In this document: in pieces, positions 12,686 to 43,545 of the stretch
Position numbering within the stretch: the first letter of the stretch is position 1
Layout: every line of letters starts with the position of its first letter
Assembly: GCA_010093705.1 (NCBI GenBank)
Contig: MU006089.1
Location: 1,366,455 to 1,430,454 of the forward strand
Direction of reading: 5' to 3'
Source of the DNA: Patellaria atrata CBS 101060
Taxonomy: Eukaryota
DNA: 64,000 nt
Notes under the pieces: model-generated
Told to the model about the DNA's origin: nothing
What the model saw: the letters and a program-made list of their open reading frames with translations, nothing else
The model's database searches: none
Program-made: the position numbers and the translations under genes

Positions 12686-12689
12686 AAGA

Positions 12690-16929: not shown

Positions 16930-18992
16930 ATGTGCTCTGGTCCAAGTCGTCAAACTGGGTACGATGCCTCAGGACCGGTTCGGCAGGAATCAGGCATAGG
17001 CGTTACTCATGAAACGAAAGAAACCGTTGCGGAGCATTCCCCTTCTATGTCAGGGCCGGACGAGCGCTTAGACACTATTGGTGACTATCCAAGTGGCGTC
17101 TTGCTGATATTCATTGGCGTAGCCCTTTTGATGAGCGTGTTTTTGGTATGTTTCCTCTCCAGACATGTGATTGAGCTTATTGTACCGCTCACACTCGAAG
17201 GTCGCTTTAGATATGGTTTGTACAAATCTGATGTGGTTAATAAGATCCTAATTTCAGGAAGACTATTGTAGCAACTGCTATACCGAGGATAACAGACGAA
17301 TTCAAATCCATCGATGAGGTTGGATGGTATGGCTCAGCGTTCTTTCTAACTCTGGCTGCATTTCAGTCGACCTGGGGCAAACTATATCGATATTGCAATT
17401 TGAAGTTCTCTTTTCTTATTGCAGGATTGATATTCGAACTAGGTAGCTTGATGTGCGGTAAGCTCCCCGAGATTTCCATTCATCTAGCGGTACTGTAACA
17501 ATATAGGGATCGCAAAAAGCAGTACCACCCTAGTCGCTGGACGTGCAATTACCGGCTTCGGTGCGGCCGGATTATTCGGCGGTAGCTATACAATTATAGC
17601 CTTCATTGCTTCGCCGGAGAAAAGGCCTGCGTATACCGGCTTGGTTGGCACAGCATACGCTATTGCGAGCGTAGCAGGGCCCCTTCTAGGCGGCGTTTTT
17701 ACGGATACAATCAGCTGGCGATGGTGGTACTGTACAGTTCCAAACTCCTTAAAAAAATTACATTAGCTCATTCAGGAATAAGCTTTCTTATAAACCTACC
17801 GATTGGAGGTGTAGCCCTTGGTTTAATCCTACTATTGTTCAAACCTCCAACCTCAGCAAGGCCCACTGAAGCGCCTCTTAGGGAGATTATTTTGCAACTG
17901 GACCTCCCAGGGACTATTATCGTTCTTGCTTGCCTCTTATGCTTTCTCCTCGCTACACAATGGTCGGGCGTAACACGCACCTGGGATTCTCCTAATGTAA
18001 TTGCAGTCTGGGTTTCATTCGCCGGGTTACTGCTCGCTTTCATCTTAATCCAAATCCGGCAGCAAGAAAGGGCCGCCCTCATACCACGTATTTTGAGGCA
18101 AAGGGCTCTTGCTGGTGTATGTGCTTTTGCATTTTTGTACGATCTTGAACACCTTCTACTGAACGTGTATTGACCAACTACTAGTCAAAACGGCACAAAT
18201 TTCCTCGTCACTTATTATCTCCCCATCTATTTTCAAGTTATTATGGGCGCTACTGCAGCTCAAAGTGGAATCTACAATTTCCCTCTCATTGTGGGATCTT
18301 GTGAGTCTTCTGCATCTTTTCCATCCGCATGCTTTCCGCTCAAACTAACCCCACGCTGAAGGCGTATGCGCTGCTCTTTCCGGCATCTTAATCGTCCGTA
18401 TAGGCTATTATACCCCATTCATGGCGTTCGGCAGCGCTCTCTTCCTGGTAGGCGCAGGTCTACTATATACTCTGGATATTAACACTCCACTGAAGTATTC
18501 TATCGGTTATCAGGTGATTCTCGGTGTGGGCCAAGGGATTGGTATTCAGATGGCGGTGATTACCGCTCAGGCATACTCCCGCGTCCAGGACCTCTCAGCA
18601 TCAACAGCCATTGTACTGTGTAAGTTTTGATTCCCGATCTGTAGTGCAGCTTACAGACCGCTGACGGTATGTCCACAGTTTTTCAGATGATGGGTGGCAC
18701 AGTGTGTGTTTCCATGGGCCAGTCGACGTTTAGTAACCGATTGGTAAAGGATCTCGCCAGCAGGGCGCCATGGATCAATGCAGAAAGTGTGTTGGGGACA
18801 GGAACGACAGAGTTGAGGACGGCTTTTCCGGCTGGTGATGTCAGGTTGATCCTTGAGAGCTATATGTTTGGGTTAAGAGATACATTTGCGCTAAGTGCTG
18901 CCCTCACCGGATGTTCATTTGTAGCGAGTTGGGTTGCGCCAATTAGGAGTATCAAGAGCCTAGGCGAAGCTGATACCAGTATAAGCGTATAA
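16930..18992 (+). CDS. MFS drug:H+ antiporter (DHA2/14-TMS, toxin-efflux type), multi-exon
   Basis: [85 protein letters not shown]. Confidence 0.9.
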
Positions 18993-19621
18993 CTCAACCT
19001 TAGAAATAAAAACATGAGATTGTAATGGTTTACGATGGGGTTAGAAACTCTGTTACTGTAATACATGGAGCACTTTCCAAAGGATAGTCCCCTGTACGGA
19101 GGTATCCAGAGCTTGATTGCTTCAGGAGTGCGAGTGGGTTGCTTGATTTTCTCGTGTAACCGGAGAAATGATTAAAAGTGGCCAGTCAAGGGTGATCTCT
19201 CTGGCGTTGCTACTCCTCAGTGTAAATTTCAGAAAAGCTAGACCACAGTGTAACCTACAAAGGAGACAAAATAATCACTTTACCGAAAGAAGCCCCACCA
19301 AGGTCCGTAAGACAAGGCCGGTAGGTTTCGTGTAGGTCACCAAATTCTAAGACGAGAAAAGTAGAAATAGAAAATGAGCCGTAGAAACACTTGAGCTGAC
19401 GGTAGTACCATGCGCGAACCCTGACTGTCTTCGTAACCCCACAATGTGTTAGAATCACCTATTATACCAGAAATTCATTCATACCATTCCGCATTGGTAG
19501 TAAGCCCTCAGACACGGTTTTCGAATAGCCCGATTTTGCTACACAAAATACACAGGAGAGTAGACGACTGCCGTCAACTTTATTTTGAGCGAAGATAATT
19601 TGACAGAGTTCAAAAATGTTG

Positions 19622-21615
19622 CTAGTGCCTAACCACTACTCGCACGCCATGGCTACCCTCAGCAGGATAAGGAATGATCATGTCCGAGTTCATATCTACG
19701 TCCCTCGCTCGCTCGGTGTCATAAAGCTCCAGTGTTGGACAAGTCTGGGTACCGGTGCCATCATATAAGTCGTACTTGCGGAAGATGCCAGCAATGATGG
19801 TAAAGAGCTCTTGCCGAGCGAGATTCATTCTGAGCATCAATTAGCACCTAAGACACGTTTCTAGATTGGGAACGCATAGGAGGAAACTGAATGTAAACAT
19901 ACCCAAGACAATTTCTGGTCCCCTTCGCGAAAGCAATTAAGGATTTATCCAACCGCGGATTCTCAATCCACCTTTCAGGAATGAACTCGAAGGGATCCTG
20001 AAATACCTCGGGATTCGTATGTAATACCCACGTGGTCATATTCATCGAAGTCCCTGCCGGTATATTGTAATCTTCGCCCGTCTGGCTGTTTTTATACACA
20101 ACATCCTCGTACGGAGAAACTCGCGGTAAGCGGGACACCACACTTGGATGTAGTCGTAAGATCTCCTGAACAACGGCACCAAGGTACGGGAGGGCTTCTA
20201 CCTGGGAGTAGGTCGGAACGACTTTGGGTTCGTGGATGGCGGCAACTAGCTCTGCTCGGAGCTTTTTGAGTGAGGCGGGATTCGCTAGAAGCTCGAAAAC
20301 GGCGAAACTGAGAGTCGTACCGGTAGTATCCTGACCAGCAAGAACGGTGAGCTGGGCTTCATGGCCGAGGCGCGCAGTTGTCTTTTCCTCTGGGGGTAGA
20401 TTACTATGGAGGATTCCATAGAAAATGGTGTCCTTACCGGCGTCGGGATCGGGTGAGTTTCGAATGTCCTCCACTTGAGCTTTCCAAACCTGTGAGCTAT
20501 TAATTAAATAGAGTGACTGATGGATGGTTAAACAAGCGTACCTCTTGCATTTTCATAAGATCGAAAAGACCAGGTGCCAGTATGCGACAAAACCATCTCG
20601 GACTGGCCTCCAGGAGCGGACCAAGCCAAGGAAAGTGCATCAGTGCGTGATTCATCTTAAAAACAGAATCGACCGCTTTCATGAACGGCATATTATAGTC
20701 TGGATAGTCAAGGAAGTTTGTAGAATTACCAAAGGCATATTTTGTAATGATGTCACTTGTCGCTGCTTTGAAGACGTAGTTAAGCGACATCACCTCACCT
20801 GTCTTACTTGCAGATTCCATCCGACCCAGTATTTTCTCCAAGCTAATGGTTATTATAGGCTCTAGTTTCCTTATACGCGCACTCGAAAAGAAGTTGGCTA
20901 CCGCGCCCCGTCGCTGTCGATGTACATCATGCTGGATTGTCGCTACCATCGAGTTTTTGGCTGACTTAGATTAGTGGCTACATTCAAGAAGATTAGACAA
21001 GATTGAATACTCATCGTCCGCCTCCCAGTGAATCGATACTTGTTGGTTTTCTTTGTCGCGCCGGGAAATATATCGTCAATGAAATTTGGGTCATTGCAGT
21101 GGATTTCATGAGGATTGATACGGATGAGTGGTCCTTGATTTTTACTCCTACGTCAATTAAGAATACAAAAATTAAGCTTTGTCCGGCTTACCGTATTCTT
21201 TATGAAGCTCGGCTATCTTGAAAATGTACTTTCCCCCTAGCCAGACGTCGTAGTAAGCTTCGTACCATGTGGTCATTGCTATACATTTCCACTTAGTAAT
21301 GCAGTTAGAACAAGAAGTAGTCTTTACTGACCGGCCAATTTTGGGCCAGGTATCTTTGCAAGCGGGTCGAAGTATACTTCAAATCAGATTAATCGGGATT
21401 CTCTTGAAACTCGGTTCGAAAATCGTACAGCGATAAATAGCACCACAGATGCAGAAAACAGGCCATCCGACGGCTACAATACTCAACGTTACCGCACTGG
21501 TCAAGTCTTTCTCTTTCCATTGCTCGAACCCTCGGAGGATGCCGGTCCCGTCTAGAATCGTGGCATAGGTGAAATTCTCCAAGGATTTTTCCAAGAATTG
21601 CCCATATGAAATCAT
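19622..21615 (-). CDS. Cytochrome P450 monooxygenase (multi-exon; start uncertain)
   Basis: TM anchor then YRLYFDPLAKIPGPKLA. I-helix LAGQDTT, EILRLHP (ExxR), FIPERW, heme motif FAKGTRNCLG|MNLA. Confidence 0.93.
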
Positions 21616-22308
21616 GATGATGACGCCCGCTTTTTGTCAACCGGAAGGAGATGATAGCATAGGATGGGAGCATACGGTATGGGACTTTTTGCCCAAGCTC
21701 CATATATGTTCATTTTCTCTCCTGCCATTGGGACCTTGACGGCTTCACTTAGAACTACAGGAAAGCATAGGTCTAGAAAGAGTATCAACACATCCATGCC
21801 TAATTAGTTTTGCACTTCCAGTAATGGATACTGACAGTTGCTCTGAGTTATCACAAAGGTGTCGTGGAGTTTGCTGGTCAAAGTAAGCTTAAGGAAAGTA
21901 TGGTAAGCAACAGGGGAGTAAGCGAGGTGTTTAGTTCTATTTCTGGACTAGCATGGATAAGCAACATAGGTTAATGGGACCACTTGAACGTAGGTACACA
22001 GTAACACCTGACCCCGATTTCTGTATGCATATGTGACCCTAAGTAATTGTTCAATATGAGCCTCAAGCGCTACTGCACGTGTAAGTACTACTATTCCCGA
22101 CTTTACTCACTAACACCAGCATTCGTGATTCCGCATGGAGAACGAGATGCGCTTACCACGTTCCATGTCCTCACACCGGATTTTGACCTTAGAATACAAA
22201 CTCCTAGGAGTCGGTTATAAGTCGATATGACTGTTTCTTTGAATAGAGTTTCTCTCTCGCTCTTTCTTTGCTTTGATTCGAGACGAGTACTCGAACTTTT
22301 AATACAAG

Positions 22309-24105
22309 ATGATCGTTAGTCATCGAGCTATACTGGCCGTTTGGGGGCTTTTTTGGGTTTCCGTTGGCCATTCGGCTGTCTTGAAACCCTACAACGTCAC
22401 CAAAGACTGCTACTATCTTCCACAGGACCAAGAGTGGCCGAGTGTTTCCGAATGGGCTCAACTGAACAAATCAGTCGATGGCAGACTTATAGCTGGTAGG
22501 CCAATGGCAGAAGTTTGCCGTCGCTCTACATTTCAATCTGAATCATGCGCCGACCTTAAGAAGGAATGGATTCTCGCCAATCCACAGTATGTTCAACCAG
22601 TGATACTACAGAGCTTTGCTCACACTTGCTACAGTTTCCAAGATCCAGTCTCTTTTTACAGCCCGTACTGGCTCAACAACACGTGCAGTCCTTTTGCGGA
22701 TGCTGATGCACCATGTGATATGGGGAACCTCCCTTCGTACGCCATCAATGTCAGCAGTGCTGCGGATGTTGCCGCGGGCCTCAGGTTCGCCCGCACAAAG
22801 AACATCCGCTTAACCATCAAGAACACCGGCCACGATTTCAATGGGCGCTCCTCAGGCCAAGGTGCCCTTAGTCTCTGGATGCACAATTTGAACGACATAT
22901 CCTTTTTCGACTACATCGGTCCCACTTATCTAGGGCGAGCGGTGCGCATGCACTCTGGTGTGCAAGCCTGGGATGCCTATGCCGCAGCAGGCAGAGAGGG
23001 CGTACGAATGGTCGGTGGGTTCTGTCCTACTGTAGGTCTAGTAGGTGGGTATGTACAGGGCGGAGGACACGGGCCGCTTGCTCCAATGTACGGTATGGCG
23101 GCTGATAACACACTGGAGTTCGAAGTTGTGACCGCGGACGGGAGACATTTGAACGTGAGCGCGACACAGCACCCTGATCTATTCTGGGCCTTGAATGGTG
23201 GCGGGGGCGGAAACTATGCGGTAGTCCTTTCTCAGGTCACTAAGGTCTTTCCTGATGGAATTGTGGGTGGTGCAACCCTCACGTTCAATAAGTCTGATAC
23301 GCCGGCCGAGCAGGAGCCTTTTTGGGATAGTGTCACAGCATGGCAGAAGCATCTGCTTACCCTGAACAGCGAACCTGGATTTCAGGCTGTATACACTGTG
23401 ACGAACTTCAGCTTCCAGATCAATTTCCTGACTTGGCCTGGGAAGACGAAAGAACAAGTTAATTCTTCTCTGGCGCCCTTCCGAGCCGAATTGGACCGGA
23501 GGAATATCAATTTCACACAAGTAGTAAGTGATGACAGTGGGTATCATAAGCATTTTGCTCGATACACACCCGGCCTACCGTTCGGAAAGTACGTCGTATT
23601 TATGATACTTGGTGGTCGGCTCATTCCTCGACGTACGTTAGAGAATGATGCAGAGGGGTTAACTACTGCCATCAGAAGCATAACAGAGGATGGAAGATAT
23701 ACGTACAATGGGATTAGTATGAATGTGTCACACGCTCGTGCCGGCAACGAACCAGGGGCAAATGCGGTATTGCCTGCGTGGCGGGATGCAGCAATCAGCT
23801 CCAATATCGTCGTTGAGTGGCACCCAGAGAAGGGGGATACACTTGACATGTTGCTCGCGACACAAAAGGAGATGAACGATGTCATGGTCCCGCAGCTGGA
23901 AATGGTGTCGCCAAATAGTGGAACGTATATGAATGAAGGGACCTTCGATTTAGCAACGTGGAAGGATGATTACTATGGAACAAACTACGATAAATTACTA
24001 GAAATCAAGAAGAAGTGGGATCCGGATATGATATTCTATGGAAAACCGAACGTTGGAAACGAATATTGGAAAAGGATGGCTGATGGGAGGCTGTGCAGAG
24101 CCTGA
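22309..24105 (+). CDS. FAD-linked oxidoreductase, berberine-bridge-enzyme-like, with signal peptide
   Basis: IKNTGHDFNGRS (covalent-FAD His), GFCPTVGLVGGYVQGGGHG, DLFWALNGGGG, GTYMNEG, YYGTNYDKLLEIKKKWDP. Probable 48-nt in-frame intron 22587-22634. Confidence 0.93.
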   Translation: MIVSHRAILAVWGLFWVSVGHSAVLKPYNVTKDCYYLPQDQEWPSVSEWAQLNKSVDGRLIAGRPMAEVCRRSTFQSESCADLKKEWILANPQYVQPVILQSFAHTCYSFQDPVSFYSPYWLNNTCSPFADADAPCDMGNLPSYAINVSSAADVAAGLRFARTKNIRLTIKNTGHDFNGRSSGQGALSLWMHNLNDISFFDYIGPTYLGRAVRMHSGVQAWDAYAAAGREGVRMVGGFCPTVGLVGGYVQGGGHGPLAPMYGMAADNTLEFEVVTADGRHLNVSATQHPDLFWALNGGGGGNYAVVLSQVTKVFPDGIVGGATLTFNKSDTPAEQEPFWDSVTAWQKHLLTLNSEPGFQAVYTVTNFSFQINFLTWPGKTKEQVNSSLAPFRAELDRRNINFTQVVSDDSGYHKHFARYTPGLPFGKYVVFMILGGRLIPRRTLENDAEGLTTAIRSITEDGRYTYNGISMNVSHARAGNEPGANAVLPAWRDAAISSNIVVEWHPEKGDTLDMLLATQKEMNDVMVPQLEMVSPNSGTYMNEGTFDLATWKDDYYGTNYDKLLEIKKKWDPDMIFYGKPNVGNEYWKRMADGRLCRA

Positions 24106-24545
24106 ATGAGTCCCTAGAGTCCCTAACTTGATGAGTATCCAAGTAGTGCTTGATATACACCAATGTGGAGAATTCTAGGATTGTTCCGCTCTGTATTTCT
24201 TTGGAAAGGGTGTGACGCTACATAAGTGAGTTGTCGAAGACTTCTGGTACTTTTTTCAGCGTTCAAACACTATAGTAAAATGAGACAAGTATCTACCAAC
24301 TGAAGAATTTTGGAAAATTGAGAGCTAACATATTTTATCGAAGTAGTTCATATCCTCCTTCTTCATGCTAATTGCTCTACAATAACACAAAAACCTTCAC
24401 TTTGATTGTCATCAATCATTGACCCAGTCACCAGCCTACTTCAGAAATGGAGACTAAACAGCTGCGCAAAGTGCATAAATCAAAGTCTCAGTGCTCATTG
24501 TTACTGGTCAAGGCTCCTTGAGGCTGCATATCATAACTTCGAACT

Positions 24546-25367
24546 TCACCACGGCTTCTCCTCACCTGTGTACAACCAAAATTTCCCACTCGACTTCGTC
24601 CTGGTCGCATTATCAATAACTTTTACCACCCCCTTTATACTCTCTTCCGTCGTAATCTCCGCTTCCTTGAACCCGAGGGCTACTGCACCGTAGTTTCCCA
24701 GATCTGTTTGCACCCAACTGTTGTAGTCGTTAGCACAAGCACTCGCTCTGATTTTATACTAGTCATAATCCAACCAGAGGTTCGCAACTTACCCGGGATC
24801 TATAGGGAATGTGCACACATGCTCCTCTTCAAAGTGCATCTTGAGCGTCAGATAGTTCAAGGCCGCTTTGCTGGTACCATACGCGCCACTAGGAAATGGG
24901 CGGGTATCCATCTCTGATAAACTTCCAGCGGAACTGCTCATGGTCACAAACTTGGGAGATTTGGCCTCTAGAAGGAGTGGTAAGATTGCCTGCCACAACC
25001 ACACAACACCGTAGACATTGACATCCAAGTGCCTCTGCAGGTCCCAGACATTGAGCTCCGAGACTTTAGGCCAAATCTGGCTGATACCGGCGTTGGCAAT
25101 GACCAAGTCGACATGTTTGATATCATGTCTGGTGATTAGCTCATTTACCGCATTGGCGGGATCTGTCGCATTGGTCCCTTCTATTTTAACGAGCACGAGC
25201 CGAGAGCCCTCTCCAGTTGGAAGCGAGAGCAGCGCTTTTGAGGACGCAGACTTGATGTCGCGGTTTGCAGCGATGACGGTGTGGTTGGGCTTGTTTAGAT
25301 AGTATTGGAGTAGGGCCTTGCCGAGGCCTCTGTTAGCGCCTGTGATAAGGACTCTATAGTTCGACAT
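24546..25367 (-). CDS. Short-chain dehydrogenase/reductase (Nor-1-like ketoreductase family)
   Basis: VLITGANRGLG, IANAG, SSSAGS, YGTSK (YxxxK), IDPG|WVQTDLGN. Last exon ends KPW-TGA at 24546-24548. Confidence 0.92.
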
Positions 25368-26040
25368 TCTATCATGGAATAGGATAGTAAAAAGCAACCG
25401 ACGGATGTGCACAACTAAATCTCTTATCCTTGAAGTACCTCGCGAGGAAGGATTGAGAAGCATTGTCGGGTGGGAGATATATCCGCGACTGTGACGCCCT
25501 ATTATCGACATATGAGACTTATCAGAGGTTGGCTTGAGATTTACAATGGTTCCTCTCTAGTGGGACCAGAGACAAAAGAGTGACATTGAGAAGAGCATTA
25601 CTTCCAATAACCCCTCCGCTTACTGCTTACATGTACTTACCTTACATTAACTATCTATGTGTATTACTTCCCTGCATAGCTTACTGACGATGACCAGGGT
25701 GTAATCGTACTAAAAGGGAATCCAAGACCCCTTGCATAAAGCTTAGATCTACCCTAATTGTCAAAGTGTAAGGTAGTATTGAGTGACGGGTGTTTGTAAT
25801 AACTGATAGAAGCAGAAGTTTGTCCCTGCTACTTGACTGAATCTTCGTGGCCTTAGCTCTGCTCATCTGTTGTCTATTCACATGAAGATAACCCATATGT
25901 AAACTTGAAAATTAATGATAGAAAGTTTTATCATATATCCTAATAACTTCAACCTTCATATGGTCGAATATACCAAACTATTCTAATGACTACATATGTG
26001 ATGCATTAAATCTTCGAATGTCTTACCAGCCACCAGCCGA

Positions 26041-27130
26041 TTATCCCTTCAAGGTTCCAAGGAAACAATCTTTCACGAATGCAGCCTGCATTTCCAACAC
26101 ATCCTGAAACTCATTACCAGACAGAACAGTCAGGTGGCCTTTGCCCTTAGCAAGATACAGTTTCTTCGGCTGCGTAAACTCCTGGAAAGCGTCAATCTGC
26201 TCCTCTGGTGGGGACATCTTATCCAGCTCTGGAACAACCATCATGACCGGCATCGGTGCCACCAGACTTAACATCTCCTTCGGTTTCCAGACTGCCATCT
26301 TATAGTAGCTCTGTAGTGTGATCCTATTCACATAATTTGGTGGCGTATGATCGTCTAGATTACCCATGAATGTATACGCCTCTAGACCACCTGGACCTCC
26401 CGCTCCGGCCATTCCGATGGGATTTTCACCCTTGCTATTGAAGGGTGGGAGCGTGAAAGGAGAGTTTCCTCTGAGTTGAGAATGCCGGTCTTTCATAAGT
26501 TGCGCGGTGACTTTGGTCCAGCGATCAGGTTTGTAAAACTTAAAGATTGGGCACACCATAATTAGGGACTTAGCGCGTTTATCGAGTGCTGCGGTACACG
26601 CGCTGACGGTGGCGCCGAAAGACATGCCCCATAACGCAATGCGATTCGGGTCAACATTAGGTAGAGCGCTGACATGAGTGAGAATATCTGCTTAATGTCA
26701 GCCTTAGAGATACTATATAAAATTATAAGGGCCATTGTTGTGCGCAAAGAATGCCATATACTTCTTAGGTCACAATTAGGGAAGAGTAAATATTCATACC
26801 TGACAAGTCCTCAGCCTGTTGGTTAGGATCAATCTGATTGCGTGGACTCCCGTCACTGTCTCCGATGGAACGTGGATCATATATTACAACATTGTAACCT
26901 AAGGATTGAAATCCCTCAGCGACCTCTGGTAGCAACATTTCCTTGACACAATTGAACTAGATTCTTAATCAGTCTTCCTCTCTAGTATATATAATAGCTC
27001 AGTGGTTTCTTACACCTGGGGTCATGATGATGACGGGTGCTCGCCCGTCAACAGCGTACAGCCATCCCCTAAGTTTCAGGCCGTCTATAGTCTTGAATTC
27101 GACCTTCTGGTATCTTTTGGCGGGCGCCAT
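26041..27130 (-). CDS. Alpha/beta-hydrolase, polyketide transferase/release enzyme type (Af380/GrgF-like), three exons
   Basis: MAPAKRYQKVEFKTIDGLKLRGWLY..IIMTPG|FNCVKEM..YDPRSIGDSDGSPRNQIDP..|VDPNRIALWGMSFG (GxSxG nucleophile), PELD (acid), GKGHL (His). Confidence 0.88.
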
Positions 27131-28088
27131 TAGTGCCTAAGTGTTAGAGAATACTATATTATACTAAAGGGAAGAGAAATGTCACGAAAATACAGACGTG
27201 ACAGATAGAGAAATTCGCTGAACAGAAGTTCAAAAGCAAAGGTGAGTGTTGACCGAGGGTATGTGTCTATCATTGTATACGGTTAGTGGAACCAATATCA
27301 GAAAAGTATGATAGTTCTCGGCAACATTCAACACCCTGATGATGCCATATGGAACTGCCGCATCATATCGAGCATGATCTCGGACTAGGAATATCGTTAA
27401 CGTATCAGCTTCCATATTAAGGCACGAAAATAGGTTAACCCCGGAAAATGATTGCGTCCATAGCTGCCGTGTCATCAGCTTATGGTAATACAAATAGGTC
27501 AAATGCCACACGTAGTAATAGTGATTATTTAGCCGCATATAATTACCTGCTGGTGCCCCCCAATTAAGCTAGGAGGGTATAAGCCCTGCAGTTATAGTTG
27601 GTGCTCCTCTTTTACAGGATAGAATCCTTCAGGAATGCATCGCATATGACAGTAAGGTAGAATAATTTTGAAGTGAAAGACTGAAATGAGCAAATCATAT
27701 CAATAGCGTATTATATCTTTCCCCGCAAATTAGATTATAAATTATCATCCATGAGATGCAGCTTGGAAGTTCACTAAACTGTGTTATCCATAGAAGTCCG
27801 GTACCTTGACGACTATCTGAGCCATAATCGCTGACTAGCTAGTGCATGATTACTAGTAATAGGAGTACAGGGTTTCGTATACTTGAAATGAGTAAGAATC
27901 CAATTGGCGTAGATTTCCTGACTTTCCGGCGGCTCTTACTATCAATGAGGCTCTACGTATGGGACAAACTTCCGAGCAGACATGGACATGTTTGGGAATA
28001 GATAAATCATCTGTTCTCCTCAGTTTTCGAGTATCTACAGCACAACAGATTTTTGCGAACCGAGGAGGATCCCACACTGGAGGACTCA

Positions 28089-31000
28089 ATGGCAAATACC
28101 GCGGACGAATACCAACAGGAGCCGATAGCCATTGTTGGCATCGCCTGCCGTCTTCCAGGCGGTAGCACTTCTCCGCAGAAGCTCTGGGAGTTCCTTGAGA
28201 AAGGGGGTATCGCATCTAATAACGTCCCCGAGAACCGGTTTAACATCAGAGCGCATTATGATGGTTCTCACAAGCCAGGAACAATGCGCCCATTGGGGGG
28301 CATGTTCCTCGAAGATGTAGACCCGGCCGATTTCGACGCGTCATTCTTCGAAGTGTCGCGTATGGAGGCCATTTCTATGGACCCCAATCAACGTCAAATG
28401 TTAGAGGTGGTGTACGAGGGTTTGGAGAATGCTGGTATCACGCTAGAGACGATGAATGGAGCGCGTGTAGGATGCTTCGCAGCATCGTATGCTTCAGGTA
28501 GTTCTAAAATTTTCCTGAGCTGAACTGGTGAAAAATACGAAGTCAATTGCTGACCATAGGTTTCTACCAACAGATTATATGGATATGCAAAATAGGGATC
28601 CCTTGGATCGACCGGATAGTATCGTTGTCGGAGGAGGTCGTGCCATCTTGGCGAACAGACTGAGCCACTTCTTGAATATCAAAGGTCCGAGCATGACGAT
28701 TGATACGGCCTGCTCCGGTAGCTTAGTAGGAGTTGATGTTGCGGCGCGGTACCTCAAAAGTCGCGAAATAGACGCGGCAATCATTGCTGCCAGCAACTTA
28801 TATCTAAGTCCGGAACACGTGATGGACAGGGGTGGAGTTGGTGCCGCCCATTCCCCGACAGGGTTGTGTCACACTTTTGATATATCTGCGGACGGGTACG
28901 TGAAAGCTGAAGCTGTCAGCACTGTCATCCTCAAAAGATTGAACGACGCCATCAGAGACAAGGACCCCATTAGAGCCGTGATTCGAGGATCGGCGACGAA
29001 CAGTGATGGAAGGACTCCTGGTATTGCAAATCCCAGTTCAGAGGCTCAGGCCACTGCTATTCGCGATGCATACGCCCATGCTGGCATTACCAACTTTAAT
29101 GATACCGGATATCTCGAATGTCATGGCACCGGTACACAGGTAAATTCCCAGTTGAAAGACGAGTTCAGTTCGGCAAGGAATAAACTAATCATCATCTTCC
29201 AGGCCGGTGACCCTGCAGAGGTCGGTGGTATCAGTTCGGTATTTGCAGCAACACGGTCCGCAGACAACCCTCTCATCATCGGCTCGATTAAAAGCAACAT
29301 CGGCCACGCGGAACCTGGAGCAGGCATTTCTGGACTCATAAAGGCCATTTTCGCTATAGAAAAGGGCATTATCCCAGGAAACCCGACCTTTATAAATCCC
29401 AACCCCAAGATTGATTTCGCAGGCTGGAGAGTTAAGGCCTCCCGTACAGCGATTCCATGGCCTTCCTCAACTTCCATACGGCGTGCTAGTGTCAATTCTT
29501 TCGGCTATGGCGGGTCGAATTCGCATGTAGTTCTTGAGGAGCCTAAACTTGCTATTGGCTCGAACCATAAGTCTTCGTACATCGATGAGGATGACGATTT
29601 TCTGTCTGATGACGGGGAGTCCATCAGACCGTTCACACTCGTGTTTTCAGCCAATGATGAGCAGTCACTGCGGGCCAATGTTCGGACAATCAGCAATCAT
29701 CTCATCAATCCACGAGTCAAAGTCAGCTTGACAGATCTTGCATATACCCTGAGTGAGAGGAGGACGCAGCATTTCCACAGAGCTTATGTTGTTACGCGGG
29801 ACTTGCATCTAGATGAGAACGCATTTGTTTTCGGGAAAAAACATTCAGAGAAGCCGAGAGTAGGGTTCGTTTTTACGGGTCAGGGGGCGCAGTGGCCGCA
29901 GATGGGGAAAGATCTCCTGGAAATTTTTCCATCGGCAAGAGTACTTCTACAGGAGCTTGATCAGGTTCTCCAGAGACTTCCAGATCCACCCACGTGGTCA
30001 TTATTGAGTGAGTGAAGCTCGTTTCTTTCGATTCGTCTGCTAACAAACTCAGGCGAGCTTTCGGAGCCTCGAACAGCTGAGCATTTGCGACAACCTGAGT
30101 TTTCTCAGCCCCTAGTCACAGCACTGCAGTTAAGCGTCCTCTCTATCTTAGAAGAGTGGGGTATCCAACCTCACAGTGTTGTCGGCCACTCTTCTGGCGA
30201 AATAGCGGCTGCTTATGCGGCTGGATTTCTCTCCAAGGCTGATGCGATCAAGGCCGCTTTCTACAGAGGGCGCGCTGCTACGAACTGCGAAAGTGAAGGC
30301 GTACCGACAGTAGGTATGCTTGCAGTTGGAGTAGGAGCAGACACTCTAGCTCCGTACTTGCGTGATTACCAGGACTCCGCTTGGATTGCTTGCTACAATA
30401 GTCCTAGCAGCTTGACGATCTCAGGAAAGCTAACATCCCTAGAATCTTTGAAACGTGCTCTGCAGGCCGACAACCATTTCGTTCGGCTTCTGCAAGTCAA
30501 TCTCGCATATCACTCACAGTTAATGGATGACATCGGGAAAGAGTACGAACGATTACTAGACCAAAGCTTCGACCCACTCGGCGGCTCGAAAAGCATATTA
30601 ATGTTTTCTTCAGTCACTGGGAAAAGGATGAGTGAAACAGCTGATGCGCGTTACTGGAAAACTAATATGATTTCGCCCGTTCGATTCGATGAGGCTGTCA
30701 AAGAGATGGTTTCCGGTCAAGATGCTGCTAACTTCCTCGTCGAAATTGGTCCAAGCGGTGCCCTTGCAGGGCCAATTGCGCAGATAAAAAAGTCTATATC
30801 CAGCCTGGGAACCGACCTTACATACTGTGCGTCATGGTCAAGGGGCGCAGACGCCGCAACATCTATCTTCGATACGGCGGGCCGTCTGTTTGTTGGAGGT
30901 GGAGCCGTCTCCATGGCTAAGGTCAACCAGTATGAGCAGGGTGAGATTAAACCAGCTGTTATCATAGACCTTCCAAACTACATCTGGAACCACTCCACCA

Positions 31001-34000
31001 AGTACTGGCACGAGAATCACGTAAGCAAGGACTGGCGCTTCAAGAGATTTGTGCACCATGATCTACTTGGTAGCAAGATCATGGGAGCCTCGTGGGGTGC
31101 TCCATCCTTTAGGAGGCTTCTCAAACTTAAAGATGTTCCCTGGCTTAGAGACCACAAAGTGGGTACCGATGTGGTCATGCCCGGTGCTGGCTTCATCGCG
31201 ATGGCCGTCGAAGCCATCTACCAAATGAAACAGTCTATTGAACCGAATGAAAGCGTTAACTCTGTCAACGATTTATGCTACCAGTTTCGAAACGTGCGCT
31301 TTGACAAGGCGCTCGTAGTTGAAGAAGATAGGCAAGCTAACATAATGCTATCATTGACACAACAGCCCGGCAGCAAAGACTGGCACGAATTCAGTATAAC
31401 GTCTTCGACTGACGATGTTTTCATGCAACATTGTTACGGATCTGTCCGCACCGAGGAACCCGTCAAAGAATTTGCCCCCAAGTCTGTGTCGGATCCCCTC
31501 AAGTATCCCACTTCAGGCCAACAGTGGTACAAAGCTCATGATGAAGCTGGGTATGGATTTGGACCAGCATTTCAGAAGATTCTCAAAGTTGAGTCTAAGA
31601 GTGGGGATCGTCGCTGCCGCACATTATTATCATTGTCTGATCCTCCTTCAGAATGGGAACCCCAATCATCCTACCCTATTCATCCAGCTTCGCTTGACGG
31701 TTGCGTTCAGACAGTCACTGCGTCCCTCTGGGCTGGAGAGCGCAGCTCAATGAATGCGGTGCTAGTTCCCGCGATCATCGATGGACTTATTATTAACAAG
31801 GTTCGTCGTGGTCTCACTGAGGCTGTGTCCAGCGCTATTACAGAATACAGCGGTAGAGGACGTCCTGACGATCCCACGAGTTATTTCTCGAACACTTCTG
31901 TCTTTGACTCGAAGAGCGGGGAGTTTCTGATGCAAATATCTGGTATGCGTTATGCTAAGTTAGATACTGGCACTTCGAACTCCAATGAGGCCCATACCTT
32001 CGAACAGGTATCGTGGAAACCGGATATCACATTCTTGACTCAGGAGCAAATGATATATCTTCCCTCCAAGAACTCGGCCTCGAAGGTAGACCTCATCATC
32101 GACCTTATTTCGCACAAGAGACCAGCCCTGAAGGTATTGGAAGTCAATCTCGAGCCTGAAGACCTTTCCAGTATTTGGTTCGAACAAGGTGACGCTTCAG
32201 CCAGAGCGGCATATATTGAATACAGCCTTGCATCTTCAGATGCTAAAAACCTCATCAATATTCAGACAAAACATGATTCAAAAAGAAACACTACATTTAA
32301 CCTACTCAACACCTCCAAGGAAGGCCTTGGACTGCCACACGGGGTCTACGATCTTGCCATTGTAAAAGCTGGGAGCTCCTGGACCAGAGGCCTTTCAAAT
32401 GTCCTAAATAGTTTGAAATCCCTCCTTTTTGAGAAAAGCTATGTCGTATCCATCGTCTCAGGTCCTACTTCGGCAAGTTCGGAAACGGATTCGAGTGAGG
32501 TTACGATTGCTTCTGCAAGCCCGACAAACAAAAGCACTAGCGGCAGGGCCAGCCCAGATAGCTCAAACACAGAATACTCGGATCCTGGGGAAGTTGCCGA
32601 CGAAAAGATCAATGACTCAATAGAGCTCAAAGGAAGTACTTTTGCAACTATAGAAGAAATCATGTCGAGCGAGCAAAAGTTCGAGGGCCCTGTTAGCTTG
32701 GAACAACTTATGGCAGCACACGGGTTCAGTTCGATCTTAACCATCTCAGATACCTACGATCTTGCTGCAGTTGTATCAATTCCTGATATTAGTGATAAAG
32801 CATCATACTCTCCTCAAGCTCTTTGTGTTACTCGTCTCTCCAAGCAAACACCTCCGATGACTTTAGCCCTGAAAAAGACCTTAGAGAAATCCGGCTGGAA
32901 AATTACAGAGCACGTACATCCTTTCCATAATATCCCATCCCGAAGCACCCTTCTAATTCTGGATGAGCTTTCCGCTCCAGTTCTCTCACGAATCAATACT
33001 ACCCAATGGCAATCGCTCAAGAGTTTGATAACCACTGGGAACAACTTACTTTGGGTAACTAAGGGTTCGCAATATAATGTTACAGAGCCGGATAACGCAC
33101 TAGTTCACGGACTGTTTAGGACAATTCGCATGGAGGATCCAAATGCAAAACTCGCTACTTTGGATGTTCATTCGAGTACCAGTCCTGCAACCGCAGTTGC
33201 TATTGATTTAGTGCTCAAGTCTATTAGGAAAGATCAACCTAAGAATTTCGGGGAATTTGAATTTGTGGAACGACACGGTATTCTTTATATTCACCGACTG
33301 ATTCCCGATGAGCATATCAACAAGTTTAGGATGGATGAGAGACTGGGGGCTGAACCTGAAATCAAATCTTTACACGACGCCGAGGTGACGGTCATGCTCA
33401 GGGCTGAGCGTAAGGGTACAATTGATAGTCTTGAGTTCTGCGAAATAGCCATGACAGAGCTTCCAGTCGGAAATAACAGAGTAGAGGTTGAAGTTATCGC
33501 TGCCGGTGCAAATTTTAAAGTAAGTTCATCAGTTCCTAGATAAGGCTGTTATACTCACAAGTGGAAATAGGACGTCGCAGTGACAATGGGAATTGTTCCA
33601 GAAAATGAATTTACTCCTGGCTTAGAGGGCTCCGGTATTATTAAACGTCTTGGACCTGAAGTCAAAAAGTTAAAAATCGGAGATCGAGTTTGCTTTCTTA
33701 ATAATGGAAGCTTTGCCAATCGCGTTCAAGTACCTGTAGAACGTATACACCTCATCCCTGACTCAATGTCGTTTGAAGACGCAGCTTCAATTCCCTTAGT
33801 ATATCTGACCTCTATCTATTCTCTCTTCGATATTGGGAACCTACGAAAAGGCCAATCTATTTTGATACACTCGGCTGCTGGCGGGCTCGGCATAGCTTGT
33901 ATCCAACTCGCTCAGTATATAGGGGCTGAGATCTATATTACCGTAAGCACCGAGGACAAGCGCCAGTTCTTAGCAGACAACTATGGAATTGCTTATGAGC

Positions 34001-35703
34001 GTATGTTCTCATCCCGCACCACTAACTTCCGTAAAGAGATACTGGCCGCTACTAATGGACGTGGAGTTGACCTTATTGTGAATACTCTTACTGGCGAATT
34101 ACTTGACGAGTCATGGCGAGTTACTGCCGATGGAGGAACGATGGTGGAACTGGGCAAAAAAGATATAGTTGGTCGTAATCGATTGTCCATGGAACCCTTC
34201 GACCGCAACTGCTCGTTTAGGGCAGTGGACTTCTCATATACCAGAGACATCTCAGATCAGCTAATTTCAAGGTTGGCAATGCATACCTGTATCTCGTAGT
34301 TACATTGCTAATATGCTTCTCTATATGATCAGTCTTCTATCGCGAACATTTGAGCTGATCACAGGCGATCATGTCAAACCCATCCGCCCAATCACTACAT
34401 TTGGATTCGACGAAATTCGCTCTGCTTTGGCATATATTCGTAGTGGAAGACACATTGGAAAGATTGTGATCACGAATGGAGCGAATCCTTATGTTCAAGT
34501 TCCAATCAGGCCGGCAATCAGAGGGCTTTCCCTTCGTTCAGACGCCTCCTACTTGATAATTGGCGGTCTTAAAGGTCTCTGCGGCAACCTAGCAATTCAT
34601 ATGGCTATTCACGGTGCTAAATACATTATTGCTGTTTCACGTGGTGGTTTACAAGATGATGCGTCCAAGAAGGTTATTATGAACTGCGCGGCTTGGGGTT
34701 GTGAGGTCAAGGAAGCAAGAGGTGATGTTGCAGATTTTCAGTTCATGGATGGCGTATTCAAGAAGGCATCACCAGCTATCTCAGGCGTTATTCAAGGGGC
34801 CATGATACTACGGGTACGTAATCTGATCTTTTGAAAATTAACAATGCATTGACGAAACAGGACAAACCTTATGAAATTATGACGCTCGAGGAGTATCAGG
34901 CGGCCATCTTCAGCAAGGTCCAAGGCACATGGAATTTGCATAAAGTCACTCTAGAGCAGAAGCACCCACTTGACTTCTTCACTATGCTCTCTAGCATCTC
35001 TGGTATTATAGGCAAGAAAGGCCAATCCAACTATGCTGCAGCAAATACATTCCTCGATGCATTTGCCACGTATCGTAGGTCCCTTGGTCTCTGTGCTAAT
35101 GCGGTAGACCTTGGTCTCGTCGAGGACGTAGGTTACATTGCTGAGCAAGGGGGAATGGAAAGCCACTTCGATAAGACGCAATGGATCCCGATTCTCGAAG
35201 GTACTCTCCGCAAGATAATAACCTACTCGATCTTGCAGCAGACAGCGCCGATAAATAAGGTCAGCGGCGCGCAACTCGTCACGGGAATTGCCTTTCCCCT
35301 CCCCGATAACTCTGATCTGATCAGAGACGCTCGATTCGGATATCAGTTTGGGCAAAGTGCATCTACCGGTGGGGGGAAAGTAGGGAGCGACGGCGATCAG
35401 ACCATCCGTGCGTTCCTATTAATGCATAAGTCAGGGGCGGCCCGTCCCGCAATGGTCAAGATAGCCGTTGAGCTTATGAGCACGCAATTCAGCAGAATTC
35501 TTCGGCTGGAGAGCGAGATAGAGCCCGCGAAGCCGCCGATGGCATACGGGTTGGATTCTTTAGCGGCAGTTGAGCTCCGGAACTGGGTCAGGATGGAACT
35601 AAGCGCTGATCTTAGTACGCTGGACATCACCAACGCGAGCTCGCTGGTTGCGCTATGCGAGAAGCTTGTTTCCAAACTACCTGAAGCTGAAACTGCAAGC
35701 TAG
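28089..35703 (+). CDS. Highly reducing iterative type I PKS: KS-AT-DH-(degenerate MT)-ER-KR-ACP
   Basis: KS DTACSGS, ECHGTGT, NIGHAE. AT GHSSGE, LAYHS. DH LRDHKVGTDVVMPG, HPASLDG. MT-like region LKVLEVNLEP lacks GxGxG. ER LIHSAAGGLG. KR GGLKGLCG, LR|D, QSNYAAAN. ACP GLDSL. About six introns (~28498-28572, 29140-29202, 30008-30052, 33520-33570, 34272-34332, 34814-34860). No TE or R domain. Confidence 0.96.
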
Positions 35704-37098
35704 ACTAATATAGGTATCTCTATACTATCAATGAGACTACGATAAGGATCATGGAAATTTCGGGCGAGATACCGGTAGCGAAATCAACTTAGACCTCGGG
35801 TTGGCCAACTGGTGGGTGTCGAGTGTGCGTAGCATTGGGGTTGCCAGACTGTCTGCTTGACATTCAGCCGGAACAATGTTCCCCACAGAAATCGACGAGT
35901 ATGAGAAATCTGTGATTAGATATAGCAAACAATTGCTTTGATTTATCAGTAATTCTCATTTTGAAATTTTGCGGTGCAAAAGCGCGTCTGAGGGTGTGGT
36001 GGAATCCACCTACACAATCGGACGAGCACCCTCCAGATGAGTCTGATCGGCAAATGCTGTCTACAATAGGTTGGGGAATTGGTCGTATCTATGCAAAGAC
36101 GGATCGACTTCCAGGTAAGGTCAGATCAATGTTGTACAACAGTACCTTAATAAGCACTCCTTGAGGTGGAAAGCTCAAGTTTACAGTACCCAAAGTATCA
36201 CTTATTGTACATTACGTACGGACTACTACTGAGGTGTACTGTACTTGTACGTATGAGTAGCTTATTCGCACGGAACTGATGGCATTAGCTTAACCTGATC
36301 GATCGTTTGTGTTCACCAAAAAGTTATTATCTCTTCTCCATTTAATATTGCTGGACATGTACAAACGGTAGTCTCTAACAACGTGGGGGCAACACGTGGG
36401 GAAGGTGTGGCAATAGTTCTATCACAAGCACGGACTAGGACTAGAACTAGTTTGCTTAACTTCAATCATAATCCAACTGCAACACCAGCTCACATTGATT
36501 CTTACCCCTGAAAGAAGGTTTTCTCCCCGCGAGGTCTGATTTATTGTCAATGAACGGCGAGTACTTGCTACCGTAGAGCCCTAGCATATTATCATATTCA
36601 CCGATTGGGGAGCCGAGTATAGACTTAGAACCTATCAGATATACAGATGAAGGGATTACAGTACATACAGATCCTTACTGTACATATAGTTGATTTTCAT
36701 TCTTATCACTATGTGCAATATGTCTTGGGTCACCTAATGGAGCAGCAGCACTACAGTACTATGACCCATGATCGTAGGTAGATCTTGTTTCAAAAGATAG
36801 TCCTTCTTTGCCTTTCCCAAATTCTACTTTTCTTGCAGCTCCGCAGTGCCTCTGCTCAGCCTATCGGCGCTCTAGGAAAACGCCTCCAGTCTGAGAGCCG
36901 CGTTCAAACAGAACGGTATCTGATACCGGAAGGTGCTGTTGAAGTAGTGGCATTACTTTTGTACTCTGAGGTTCAGTTCTTTTTCTGTCGAATCGGTGCC
37001 GTGTGCTGGTGTATTTTGCCTCAACCCTTTCTTTTAGGATTCATAGATCCCCAATCAATGCATCAGATTGCGTCCCATAGGAAACGAAGGATTGTACT

Positions 37099-38306
37099 AT
37101 GGAACCCGAAGAGCCTTTACCCACTGACTCGGTGGAACGACGGAGGATACAAAATCGAAATGCTCAGCGCAAATTCCGTTGTAAGTGTTTTCGTATACAA
37201 CTGTAGAAGTATAGTACAATTACAAGTACCCTAACCACTTGTATTAACGACTCTGCTCTCCCCAAGACAAACGAAGCCTTGACAAAGCGGTTCAAGCCAG
37301 CCAGCAGGATTCGGCACCGAAAACCACGACTACGTCTATGAACGCGCTCGGGTCTGATTTATGGCATGTGCAAAATCATAGTCATCTAATGACAGAGGGT
37401 TTCGTCTCTTCCGACGGTCAGCTTCAAACCCCTTTCAGCTCCACAGATTTTCATGAAGCATTTCCCGCAAGCAGCACCACAATAGATGATTTCCGGTACC
37501 CCACACCCGAGGCAGAGGTCTGTATCCTCCCTGGATTCAACACGTCCGCCGTCCTCCCTTCACCTTCAATATTTCGAAATACTAGCCAAGAATCTCCCGT
37601 CGAAGCAGTAGGAGCTATATCTCCCATCAATGCCTCCCCACTAAATGACCTCACTCAAGTAAATCTCTCAACGTCTCCTCTTGATCATTATCATATAACT
37701 CATAATCGTCAAACTTGGCTGCCGTCTGGACATTCGACACATCTATTTACTCCAAGCGGGCTTCAGACTGGAAATTTGCAACAAACCGGTGTCTCTAACT
37801 CAGAACTTGATGCATACGTTAGGCATACGCTAGTTATAAATCGAGATTCTTCTAATTCTGCACTTCCTTTCGATGATTGGTTACACACTTTACATATAGC
37901 TGCACAGAAAGGTCACGATCGAATAGTGCGTATACTTTTAGAGAGAGATGTTGATATTCACGAAAAAGACAGTGCCGGTAAATCAGCATTACACTTTGCT
38001 GCAATGGAAGGGCATGAAGCAGTGGTGCGTTCGCTTCTTGCACATGGCGCTCGAGTTGACGAAGCTGACTTCGAGGGCCGTACGAGCCTTCATTGGGCAG
38101 TTCTCCGGCGTCATGAGAGCGTACTCAGGATACTCTTGGATCAGACGCGTTTGGATCACGGGTCGGGCATCGACATAGCCGATAACCATGGGTGGACGGC
38201 GCTGCATGCGGCAGTTGAGAAAGGCTTTGAGGCTGGCCTACAGTTACTACTACAGCATGGCGCCAATCATAAGATCAAGGCAAAAAGATGTACTAATTCT
38301 ATATAA
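37099..38306 (+). CDS. Basic-region plus ankyrin-repeat transcription factor (ToxE-like bANK type)
   Basis: Exon 1 (37099-37180) MEPEEPLPTDSVERRRIQNRNAQRKFR is a bZIP-type basic region not shown in the ORF track. Intron 37181-37266 joins it in frame to ORF 37338-38306, which has four ankyrin repeats (LHIAAQKGH, ALHFAAMEGH, SLHWAV, TALHAAVEKG). No clear leucine heptad follows the basic region. Confidence 0.85.
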
Positions 38307-39064
38307 GCATGAATAGAGATAAAGACATGCAACAACAGCGAGATAGAGTGCATCCTCCCTTCTACTACTTAACCTTGAGAAATCGCGCATATTACCTTGT
38401 TTGAAAGTTTCTATCCCACAATGCTTATTTTAAGATAGAAAAACATGCTAATCAACGTTTATTAGTCTTTATCGCCGTCTTACTTTTAGTTTTCGTTCTA
38501 ATGACCACAGAAAGGTGGTTCCTCTGAAAAGCAGTTAGTTCTACAAATATCAACCCATCTATTCATACATCCCCAAAGGAGTATGTATGGCTTCCCACGT
38601 TTTCATCCAATATATTGGCTGGAAATACACCCTTCAAGTTGGCGAACAGTGTCTAAAAATGGCCTCCAAGTGGAGGTAAGGCGTCTCATTTGCGAATCGT
38701 GCCAAATGGATTCTCCAGGTCCGGTCTACATATCACTGACAAATCACGAGAAATATCGAGATCAGATCAGCCACATACCGCAACCTATATGTGTGTACTA
38801 TTGATATATTGCTATTTGAAGTTCTACACGCAGGAGAAATGCATGAGTGTTTAGAGGGTGCTAATGTCCTTTCCAAGAACTTACAAACTTGTATAAGTCG
38901 AAACAAGCTTAAGAGACTGGTATACTAGAACCAGGCATCTCAATATGAAAGGGGGGTAGTTCATGCTTTAACAACCGCCTTAAATGCCGATGTAGCGTCG
39001 AGACGAAAAGATGAAGCGTCTCTACTGTTGTTTCGCTCGGTGCTGTGCGTGCCTCCAACTACAT

Positions 39065-41400
39065 TCACTCATCCTCAAACTCGATAAGAGCAGTGCCAGC
39101 TTTGCACATGTCCTATCGGAATTAGTAATTAGGCCTAAAAACTACAAAGTAATCGGAATCAACTAACCCCTTTGTTATGAACGACTTTCTTCACTACCCC
39201 ATCGACGGGACTTCTAATCACAGTTTCCATCTTCATACTCTCGATAACTACTAATGGCTGGTCTTTCGTTACAGTTTCACCTTCTGAGATCTCTACTCTT
39301 ATTACCTTACAAGGCATTGGCGCCACAACACTATTTTTCACGTCTTTGATCCCTAACGCATTTTCAGCCCACTTAGGGACTTCAAGTTGAAATCTGTACT
39401 GCTTCCCTTGTTGAAAAATAATGAGACGGTCTTCATCCCGTATAAAGGTGGTGGAGAGTCGCGTATGAGGATAGAAGGAAGTAATCGTTTGGTCTGCGGA
39501 TGATACATTTACTGACGTATATTGAACATCATTGACCTTAATGTCATAGGTATTTTGTGCAGTCTGATTAACACCAACTGTAGTTGGAATGCTATCGCCT
39601 TTTCCATCCAGCGGAAGCTCAAGTAAATGAAATACTCGTTGCTGGTACCCAACACCAAATCCTATTAGGGGATCAGAGATGTGCGAAATGGAATCGACAT
39701 TGGAAGACATTGTCTCTTCAATGAGCAGACCTATGCCGGCTTGAGCGAATACCTCAGGTTTTGTAGATTCGAATTTAAACAGTTCTTCCTTGTGCTTTTC
39801 AATATATCCTGTTTCGACATCACCAGCAACAAAGGCCGGACTAACACAAAGGCGTTTCAAAAACTCGATATTAGTTACTGGGCCGGCTATTTCATAGGCT
39901 TCTAAAGAGGCCCTCAGTTTCCGTAACGCAGCCTCACGACTCGGTCCTTGAACTATTAACTTTGCAATCATTGGGTCGTAGTGGGAAGACACCTCGTCGC
40001 CGGAGATGAAGCCTGAGTCGATACGGACTGTTTCTGTAGGAGTGGGTATACGCATGTGCAAAAGCTTGCCCGAATCTGGGACGAAGTTCATGTCTGGGTT
40101 TTCAGCGTAGATTCTTGCTTCTATAGCCGCTCCCCTAACAGCAATTTCCGCCTCGACTTCGTCTTGTGTTAGGGGAAGCTTGCCTCCTTCTGCAACGATC
40201 AGTTGCCACCGGACCAAATCCTGTCCAGTGACTAGTTCTGTCACTGGATGTTCAACCTGCAATCTTGTGTTCATTTCCATAAAGAAGAATTTGCCCGTAT
40301 CGTTGTCAAAGATGAATTCGACGGTGCCTGCACCTTCATAGTTGACTGCTAGTGCAGCAGCCCGAGCTTTTCCCCAGATGTCCTTCCGTACTGCCATATC
40401 CAGATCTGGCGCTGGGGACTCCTCTAGGATTTTCTGGTGTCTCCTCTGTACACTGCAATCTCTTTCACCTAAAGCAACGCAATTTCCGTGTTTGTCGGCG
40501 AAGACCTGGACCTCAATATGCCGGGGTTTAGTGATATACTTTTCCACCAACATTATCTCATCGCCGAAGGAGTTAAGAGCTTCTGATTTTGCGGAGGAAA
40601 GCTGATCCATGAACTCGTCCGCCCTCCTAACGATGCGCATGCCTTTACCCCCTCCGCCCTTAACCGCCTTTAAGAGAACAGGATATCCGATCTTCTCCGC
40701 TTGGTCTTTCAGGTGCGTAGAATCTTGATTCTCCCCGTGATACCCAGGTATGCACGGTACGCCTGCTGCAATCATAATATCCTTTGATCGACTGCACTAT
40801 GTGAGCGGTTTCGCAAACACTTCAGCTTCAGGGTCACCCCTACCTTTTACTGCCCATTGCTTCGATCGCTTGCCACGGTGGGCCAATGAATGTCAAACCA
40901 GCTTCTGTGCATTTCCGCGCAAAGTCGGGGTTTTCGCTTAACTAGAAAAGGTCTCAGAACCGATTTCTTGTGCTTACTTGACCGCGTGACGTACAAACCC
41001 ATACCCTGGGTGGATGCCTTGACAGCCTTCTTCTTGCGCTATCTCAATGATTCGATCACCATTAAGGTATTGATTAGATTCCCCAAGGTTGACGGAAAAG
41101 GGTGAACTGAGGGCATGTTGCGAACGAGCGTCAGGTTCGGTATATAGGGTGGTGGTTCGTATGCCATACTCGGAGGCAGTTCTGCCGACTCTCCTGAGCG
41201 TACCTGTCAGACAATAGACCAAATAACTCAGGATAGGGAATTTACAGAGCTATTTCTCCACGGTTCGCAATCAAGACGGAGGTCAGCGGTGTAATGCCCG
41301 TAGTTGCTGTGGAGTTGACTCGTCGCGTGCCAATGGGAGCATTGCGGCTCAACAGGCGCGCAAAATATCGAGGATTGCGGAACGACAGTGAGGATTTCAT
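39065..41400 (-). CDS. mccA: 3-methylcrotonyl-CoA carboxylase biotin-containing (alpha) subunit, mitochondrial
   Basis: Presequence-like N-terminus, [55 protein letters not shown], biotin motif ESMKME; multi-exon. Confidence 0.88.
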
Positions 41401-43349: not shown

Positions 43350-43448
43350 GGCAATAGGTGAAGAAGCGATGGCAAGATAATGTTTGTTGAATTATCCTCA
43401 TCCCTGAAGGTATTTACAGCTACAAATGTTTTCTTTCCGTTGGTGATT

Positions 43449-43545
43449 GCTCTGGATATAGTCTGGCTCTGAATATAGTCTGGCTCTGAATATAGTCTGG
43501 CTCTGAATATAGTCTGGCTCTGAATATAGTCTGGCTCTGAATATA
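43449..43545. repeat. 17-bp minisatellite (GCTCTGAATATAGTCTG), about 5.7 copies
   Basis: Directly visible tandem array. Confidence 0.95.

Follow-up and report, generated by a model that had tools for sequence, protein, structure and literature searches.

What does the seven-gene block at positions 16930-38306 of a 64,000-nucleotide stretch of the Patellaria atrata CBS 101060 genome (contig MU006089.1, positions 1,366,455 to 1,430,454 of the forward strand; the whole stretch is called the window below) produce, and does it belong to a pathway that is already known? A preliminary description, made from the DNA letters, had seen in it a cluster around a highly reducing polyketide synthase (HR-PKS) to which no known product could be assigned. 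As to the product this still stands; the family, by contrast, can be assigned, namely to the DcsA/DcsB type. We consider it likely that the block is of the decarestrictine/aspinolide type and makes a nonenolide, a lactone with a ring of ten members, in which an unmethylated pentaketide would be closed in trans, tailored by a cytochrome P450 (P450), an oxidase and a short-chain dehydrogenase/reductase (SDR), and exported, with activation by an ankyrin-repeat transcription factor of the bANK class. The cluster is thus most likely a further member of a known pathway family, whose exact compound is not fixed by sequence.

Among solved structures, the hydrolase encoded next to the HR-PKS matched 7D78 best (E 2.6e-131, versus 5.9e-65 for GrgF). 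It shares 64-65% identity over ~300 aa with the thioesterase DcsB, whose crystal structure has been solved, and 40% with GrgF. An AlphaFold model of the hydrolase (predicted local distance difference test score, pLDDT, 90.7) superimposed on 7D78 ('The structure of thioesterase DcsB') with Z 45.9 and a root-mean-square deviation (rmsd) of 1.2 A over 297 residues at 64% identity. GrgF ranked second among the structures (Z 37.6, rmsd 2.1 A, 40% identity), and the next after it reached Z 34.2. Ser114, Asp247 and His276, which we take to be the positions of the DcsB catalytic triad, are invariant in 46/46 aligned homologues and in register with 7D78, and the sequence near these residues is almost unchanged compared to DcsB. 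In a quick maximum-likelihood tree of 60 rows, the hydrolase groups with the DcsB orthologues of Beauveria and Cordyceps in a clade of 35 rows (SH-aLRT, an approximate likelihood-ratio support, 100); inside this clade, no supported closer tie to these orthologues was found. The Beauveria protein P0019 is near-identical to 7D78, and DcsB is presumably the enzyme that closes the ten-membered ring in decarestrictine C1.

GrgF of the gregatin system (PDB 6LZH) shares the fold with the window hydrolase and belongs to the same family of PKS-partner hydrolases, whereas the alignments place a Cys at its nucleophile position and a Ser in the window protein. Given this Ser and the 64-65% identity to DcsB, we reject a GrgF-type assignment and class the window hydrolase, as judged from its sequence, as a DcsB-clade serine thioesterase. 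GrgF is said to fuse chains and to work with a PKS that has an active methyltransferase (MT). A gregatin-type route, with a GrgF-like enzyme fusing chains into a furanone, could draw on the second rank of GrgF in the structural comparison, but the identity is just 40%, the nucleophile differs and the active MT, reportedly needed, is missing in the window PKS; we regard this route as extremely improbable.

The HR-PKS (28089-35703, + strand) was assigned the domain order KS-AT-DH-(dead MT)-psiKR-ER-KR-ACP by Pfam and motifs (ketosynthase, KS; acyltransferase, AT; dehydratase, DH; pseudo-ketoreductase, psiKR; enoylreductase, ER; ketoreductase, KR; acyl carrier protein, ACP). Present are the KS Cys/His/His, the AT Ser, the DH His/Asp, the ER nucleotide motif, the KR motifs LRD and YxxxN, and the ACP Ser. 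For the MT, no Pfam match was obtained in the window PKS, and the S-adenosylmethionine (SAM) motif is degenerate in it and in each of the six displayed relatives. We judge the preliminary description right in proposing an unmethylated, reduced chain. Over 2421 columns, the enzyme is 61% identical to Beauveria P0262, which is encoded at the locus tag adjoining DcsB and has the same motif set (by domain: KS 78, AT 63, DH 52, ER 66 and KR 72%). It is also 62% identical to BcPKS10, 56% to Asp2 of Trichoderma and 65% to Bathelium P0270. Its ER, with the motif intact, is 63-71% identical to those of relatives and is conserved like the relatives' own.

Two 47-row trees made with FastTree (45 rows from the match lists, chosen by similarity to the window PKS) were rooted with a single outgroup, a paralogue in the same genome, and carry fast supports; Af370, GrgA, AlnA and the brefeldin PKS were left out. 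Here a group of 40 rows including the Beauveria PKS forms the sister of the window PKS (0.996 and 1.0), and the Asp2 group is the next branch out. Midpoint rooting puts it on the Asp2 side. That is, under either rooting of these sequence trees the window PKS lies between two ten-membered-lactone synthases. A DcsB-type thioesterase adjoins the PKS, and we judge the preliminary description right in its release in trans, oxidative tailoring and lactone option. Its polyene, pyranone and furanone options become less likely, because the hydrolase is of the DcsB type and the PKS is bracketed in this way.

These options correspond to a route in which the hydrolase would free a linear (poly)unsaturated acid and the P450, oxidase and SDR would then build a small pyranone or furanone lactone. 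Such a tailoring set would fit, small lactones reportedly arise by later oxidation, as in asperlin, and the hydrolase superfamily includes, by their names, simple hydrolases and transferases. Yet the closest characterised hydrolase is a cyclase, and the intact, conserved ER speaks against a pure polyene. We consider linear release improbable on the hydrolase and PKS comparisons made, of which AlnA/AlnB were not part.

Several observations weigh against a nonenolide assignment. The DH of the window PKS is only 52% identical to that of the Beauveria PKS and 48% to that of Asp2. The synthase sits on its own branch, without a close characterised sister, at 0.8 and 0.93 changes/site from the two references; among the 40 sister rows, the majority lack a known product. 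Moreover, an identity of 56-61% between iterative PKSs fixes neither chain length nor reduction pattern. Compared with the DcsB orthologue, the hydrolase has 106 differing positions, and in its diverged stretch 201-211 (window 26498-26530), G206 and F210, each at least 90% conserved in the family, are replaced. No Beauveria or Cordyceps P450 was found among 25 P450 matches from 1091 candidates in a weak, word-limited search, which hints, if weakly, at tailoring unlike that of dcs. Finally, the product class is a prediction from sequence.

The branch length of the PKS and the changes at hydrolase residues 201-211 would also suit the same chemistry with another ring, be it a lactone of 8, 12 or 14 members or a macrodiolide dimer, and DcsB is reportedly promiscuous in chain length. 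Against this stand the almost unchanged surroundings of the catalytic residues and the ring size of both bracketing systems, which for decarestrictine we take to be ten. For the asp system, a ten-membered ring is given in the available part of PMC9592644. Another ring therefore seems decidedly unlikely. Unlikely as well, if worth keeping in view, is that the window holds an early-branching DcsA/DcsB relative whose altered 201-211 stretch closes a non-ten ring or a dimer, with the oxidase leading to an undescribed reactive enone or epoxy-lactone.

The nonenolide assignment draws on seven gene models, built by exon coordinates, which together with the central promoter are as follows:

16930-18992, + strand: major facilitator superfamily (MFS) transporter, 562 aa, 8 exons/7 introns
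21615-19622, - strand: cytochrome P450, 551 aa, 6 introns; an extra upstream exon from 21703 is possible
22309-24105, + strand: berberine bridge enzyme (BBE)-like flavin adenine dinucleotide (FAD) oxidase, 582 aa, 1 intron
25367-24546, - strand: SDR, 248 aa, 1 intron
27130-26041, - strand: hydrolase, 306 aa, 2 introns
27131-28088, no strand: divergent promoter common to hydrolase and PKS, from the gene models
28089-35703, + strand: HR-PKS, 2423 aa, 6 introns
37099-38306, + strand: ankyrin transcription factor, 373 aa, 1 intron

All 24 predicted introns are GT-AG, and no internal stops remain after splicing. Pfam matches agree with the assigned class for all seven genes, and the catalytic motifs are kept in the predicted proteins of 7/7, except for the PKS MT. 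The seven contiguous genes with intact motifs that had first been described are thereby confirmed, as are the two divergent pairs (P450/oxidase and hydrolase/PKS) and the span, whose ends are the MFS start codon and the transcription factor stop codon. The hydrolase and P450 models equal the deposited proteins P0001 and P0314, both source-labelled Patellaria atrata and both predictions rather than cDNA. Positions 18401-38400 were compared with sequencing reads (both runs found are probably DNA, from a single sample): one read contig matched 18401-25713 with zero differences and zero joints, the remainder being uncovered; this match bears on neither splicing nor expression.

The tailoring enzymes were examined for motifs and relatives. 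The P450 has kept its I-helix, ExxR, PERW and heme-Cys motifs and is 50.5% identical to P0328 of the aspinolide cluster, 62% to Bathelium P0316 and 65% to Endocarpon P0318. The oxidase matches Pfam FAD_binding_4 and BBE, with MtVAO615 as closest structure (E 1.8e-115). It carries the His and Cys motifs for covalent FAD, and its N-terminus is hydrophobic, suggesting a signal peptide. Four homologues are 44-49% identical to it, and in three cases a related PKS is encoded on the same contig; among six homologues looked up, three were PKS-linked (Trichoderma ceciliae, Astrocystis, Sclerotinia nivalis) and two had no such link. The SDR (Pfam adh_short; motifs TGxxxGxG, NAG and YxxxK) has carbonyl/keto reductases as its closest structures (best E 2.8e-17). 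The transporter, of drug-efflux type with Pfam MFS_1 and TRI12 on its exons, is likely an exporter.

By analogy with its relatives, the HR-PKS would join five ketide units into an unmethylated C10 chain, reduce it in a programmed manner and keep a hydroxyl close to its methyl end. This chain would be loaded on Ser114 of the hydrolase, whose class is assigned by homology, and that hydroxyl would close the ring. The P450 could then introduce an allylic hydroxyl or an epoxide. Alcohol and ketone states might be set by the FAD oxidase together with the SDR, giving for example an enone; this is the least certain step. The MFS protein would export the product, and the bANK factor would switch the genes on.

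Related gene pairs are common. Of 436 candidates, 345 matched the hydrolase, and of 7999 scored for the PKS, 3329 did so; many organisms are common to both match lists (best 120 of each). In eight organisms, picked because both PKS and hydrolase matched them, the two accessions are consecutive in seven and two apart in the eighth. Bathelium has the order PKS, hydrolase, two further genes and P450 homologue (62%), which equals the spacing in the window. In Bathelium mastoideum, Hypoxylon sp. FL1284, Botrytis (BcPKS10) and Colletotrichum truncatum, the PKS is 62-65% and the adjoining hydrolase 60-68% identical to the window protein; our searches found no product link for these four PKS/hydrolase clusters. 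The C. truncatum pair (P0129/P0018; 63%/67% identical to the window pair) is a candidate for a gene-to-compound link, as this fungus produces the nonenolide truncatenolide according to the accessible part of PMC9389607. Botrytis BcPKS10 (P0287), in the same PKS group, is a further candidate for such a link. With related PKS/hydrolase pairs this widespread in ascomycetes, the cluster will not surprise a specialist. Two metagenome records, P0002 (hydrolase) and P0315 (P450), are 82% identical to the window proteins (versus 64-68% for the next matches) and probably come from the corresponding cluster of a more closely related fungus. As for metagenome synteny, one of 45 pattern matches was a relative, on a 1161-bp contig that is too short.

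A second cluster is located in the same genome at G000:C3 ~1,801,300-1,818,800 (L007:1330-9999, L008:1-8729). It comprises a P450, an SDR, a BBE oxidase, a basic-region/ankyrin factor and a divergent hydrolase/HR-PKS pair, that is, six of the seven window gene types; no MFS match was found within the 28 kb examined around it. By tblastn piece, its genes are about 31-62% identical to those of the window overall (PKS 43-62%, hydrolase 37-43%). Directly right of the C3 PKS, at the contig end (L008:9489-9998, L009:1-8131), there are retroelement open reading frames (ORFs; RVT_2, retroviral SH3-like) and an OrsD/DEAD helicase ORF. Because six gene types recur in the C3 cluster, the gene set with its bANK regulator is recurrent and not singular. 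If the ring were of another size, the window cluster and its C3 paralogue would point to an old bANK-controlled module of PKS, thioesterase, P450, SDR and oxidase, and would form a natural pair for testing ring-size determinants.

How might the cluster be controlled? The transcription factor has a basic region at residues 14-27, which by inspection is not followed by a leucine heptad, and C-terminal ankyrin repeats (PF00023, E 8.9e-25; three stretches pass alone, four repeats by inspection). Its intron acceptor is 37266 or 37296, and both keep the frame. The bANK class has been characterised by a basic region without a zipper and by C-terminal ankyrin repeats, with ToxE, Aps2 and Apf2 as members, and promoter boxes vary among the known ones (available part of PMC4109984). 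In its predicted sequence, the window factor has the features that define a bANK transcription factor. Like ToxE, Aps2 and Apf2, it combines this architecture with a gene inside its cluster; unlike it, these three control non-ribosomal peptide synthetase (NRPS) clusters for cyclic tetrapeptides, as the same source describes. The position of the gene suggests that the factor controls the cluster. In the window promoters, the Api-box (1 mismatch) occurred twice versus 3.1 expected and the Tox-box 0 times versus 0.1, neither being enriched. In the five intergenic regions, no 9- or 10-mer was found in three or more, and ACGT cores numbered 13 versus 12.9 expected.

This missing common promoter motif, together with the lack of expression evidence, would be expected if the cluster were decaying or never expressed. 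However, 7/7 genes are open with canonical introns and catalytic motifs, and hydrolase and P450 have the 82%-identity relatives in metagenome records. We regard decay as very improbable.

The boundaries of the putative nonenolide cluster were set by gene type. On the right, a biotin-carboxylase gene follows at 39162-40796, presumably mccA; this flank agrees with the preliminary description. The 'gene-poor gap' given there for the left side shrinks to ~2 kb following an ORF of glycoside hydrolase family 43 (GH43) at 13811-14632; 0/3 ORFs tested in this gap gave a Pfam match. Further left (8400-14632) there are a tyrosinase-domain exon (8793-9140), a fungal transcription factor (9906-11489) and two GH43 genes (~12424-12711 and the one at 13811-14632), taken as outside the cluster. 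To the right, 39162-48919 holds housekeeping-type genes (biotin carboxylase, Cdc37 and an ABC half-transporter), and a short ORF with a tandem glutamate-rich repeat is found at 49973-50242.

Nonenolides have been studied as antifungal and herbicide leads, at least in the part of that literature available to us. Chemical closure of medium-sized rings is difficult, which makes a diverged homologue of DcsB of practical interest as a candidate cyclase. The cluster also provides a concrete, testable product class for its fungal lineage. No metabolite paper for the species was among the matches listed in a species-name literature search, and no study of the window cluster was found in the open-access literature (subscription journals and MIBiG were not covered).

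Two characterised systems allow a direct comparison. The aspinolide cluster (Trichoderma arundinaceum, Aspergillus ochraceus) resembles the window in its Asp2-like PKS (56%) and a linked P450 (50.5%). In T. arundinaceum, one contig carries both P0185 (2337 aa) and, two accessions away, P0328 (512 aa); organism, lengths and the two-gene spacing suggest that they are asp2 (2338) and TARUN_4153 (513). The available part of PMC9592644 reports that asp2 deletion abolishes the ten-membered ring, that the product of the asp cluster is aspinolide and that its P450s are proposed to hydroxylate or epoxidise. The co-expressed cluster listed there includes a 306-aa hydrolase, a 513-aa P450, a 586-aa FAD-linked oxidoreductase and a 236-aa SDR; hydrolase, oxidoreductase and SDR are like those of the window in length, a likeness by listing and not by sequence. 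In that source (PMC9592644), the asp cluster alone has a second PKS, an acyltransferase, three P450s, an FAD monooxygenase and an adjacent Zn2Cys6 gene, whereas PKS and P450 are single in the window cluster, which also holds an MFS gene and a bANK factor. Neither a second, diketide PKS nor an acyltransferase was found in the seven genes or the scanned flanking ORFs. The window cluster is therefore not the aspinolide cluster, and no butenoyl ester is expected.

The decarestrictine cluster of Beauveria bassiana has been expressed in A. nidulans, according to the accessible part of PMC9699552, which cites the DcsB paper. The dcs system (DcsB, PDB 7D78/7D79) has an MT-less HR-PKS adjoining a trans thioesterase, as does the window; unlike in a near-identical orthologue, the DH domains of the two PKSs share 52%. 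A syntenic match of high identity to a characterised cluster, which according to the preliminary description would remove novelty, exists by half, in that the core pair, the part of dcs that was compared, is 61-65% identical. The window cluster is probably no exact duplicate of a cluster characterised so far. By sequence, it combines the two features of the DcsA/DcsB-type family, an MT-less PKS and a DcsB-clade thioesterase.

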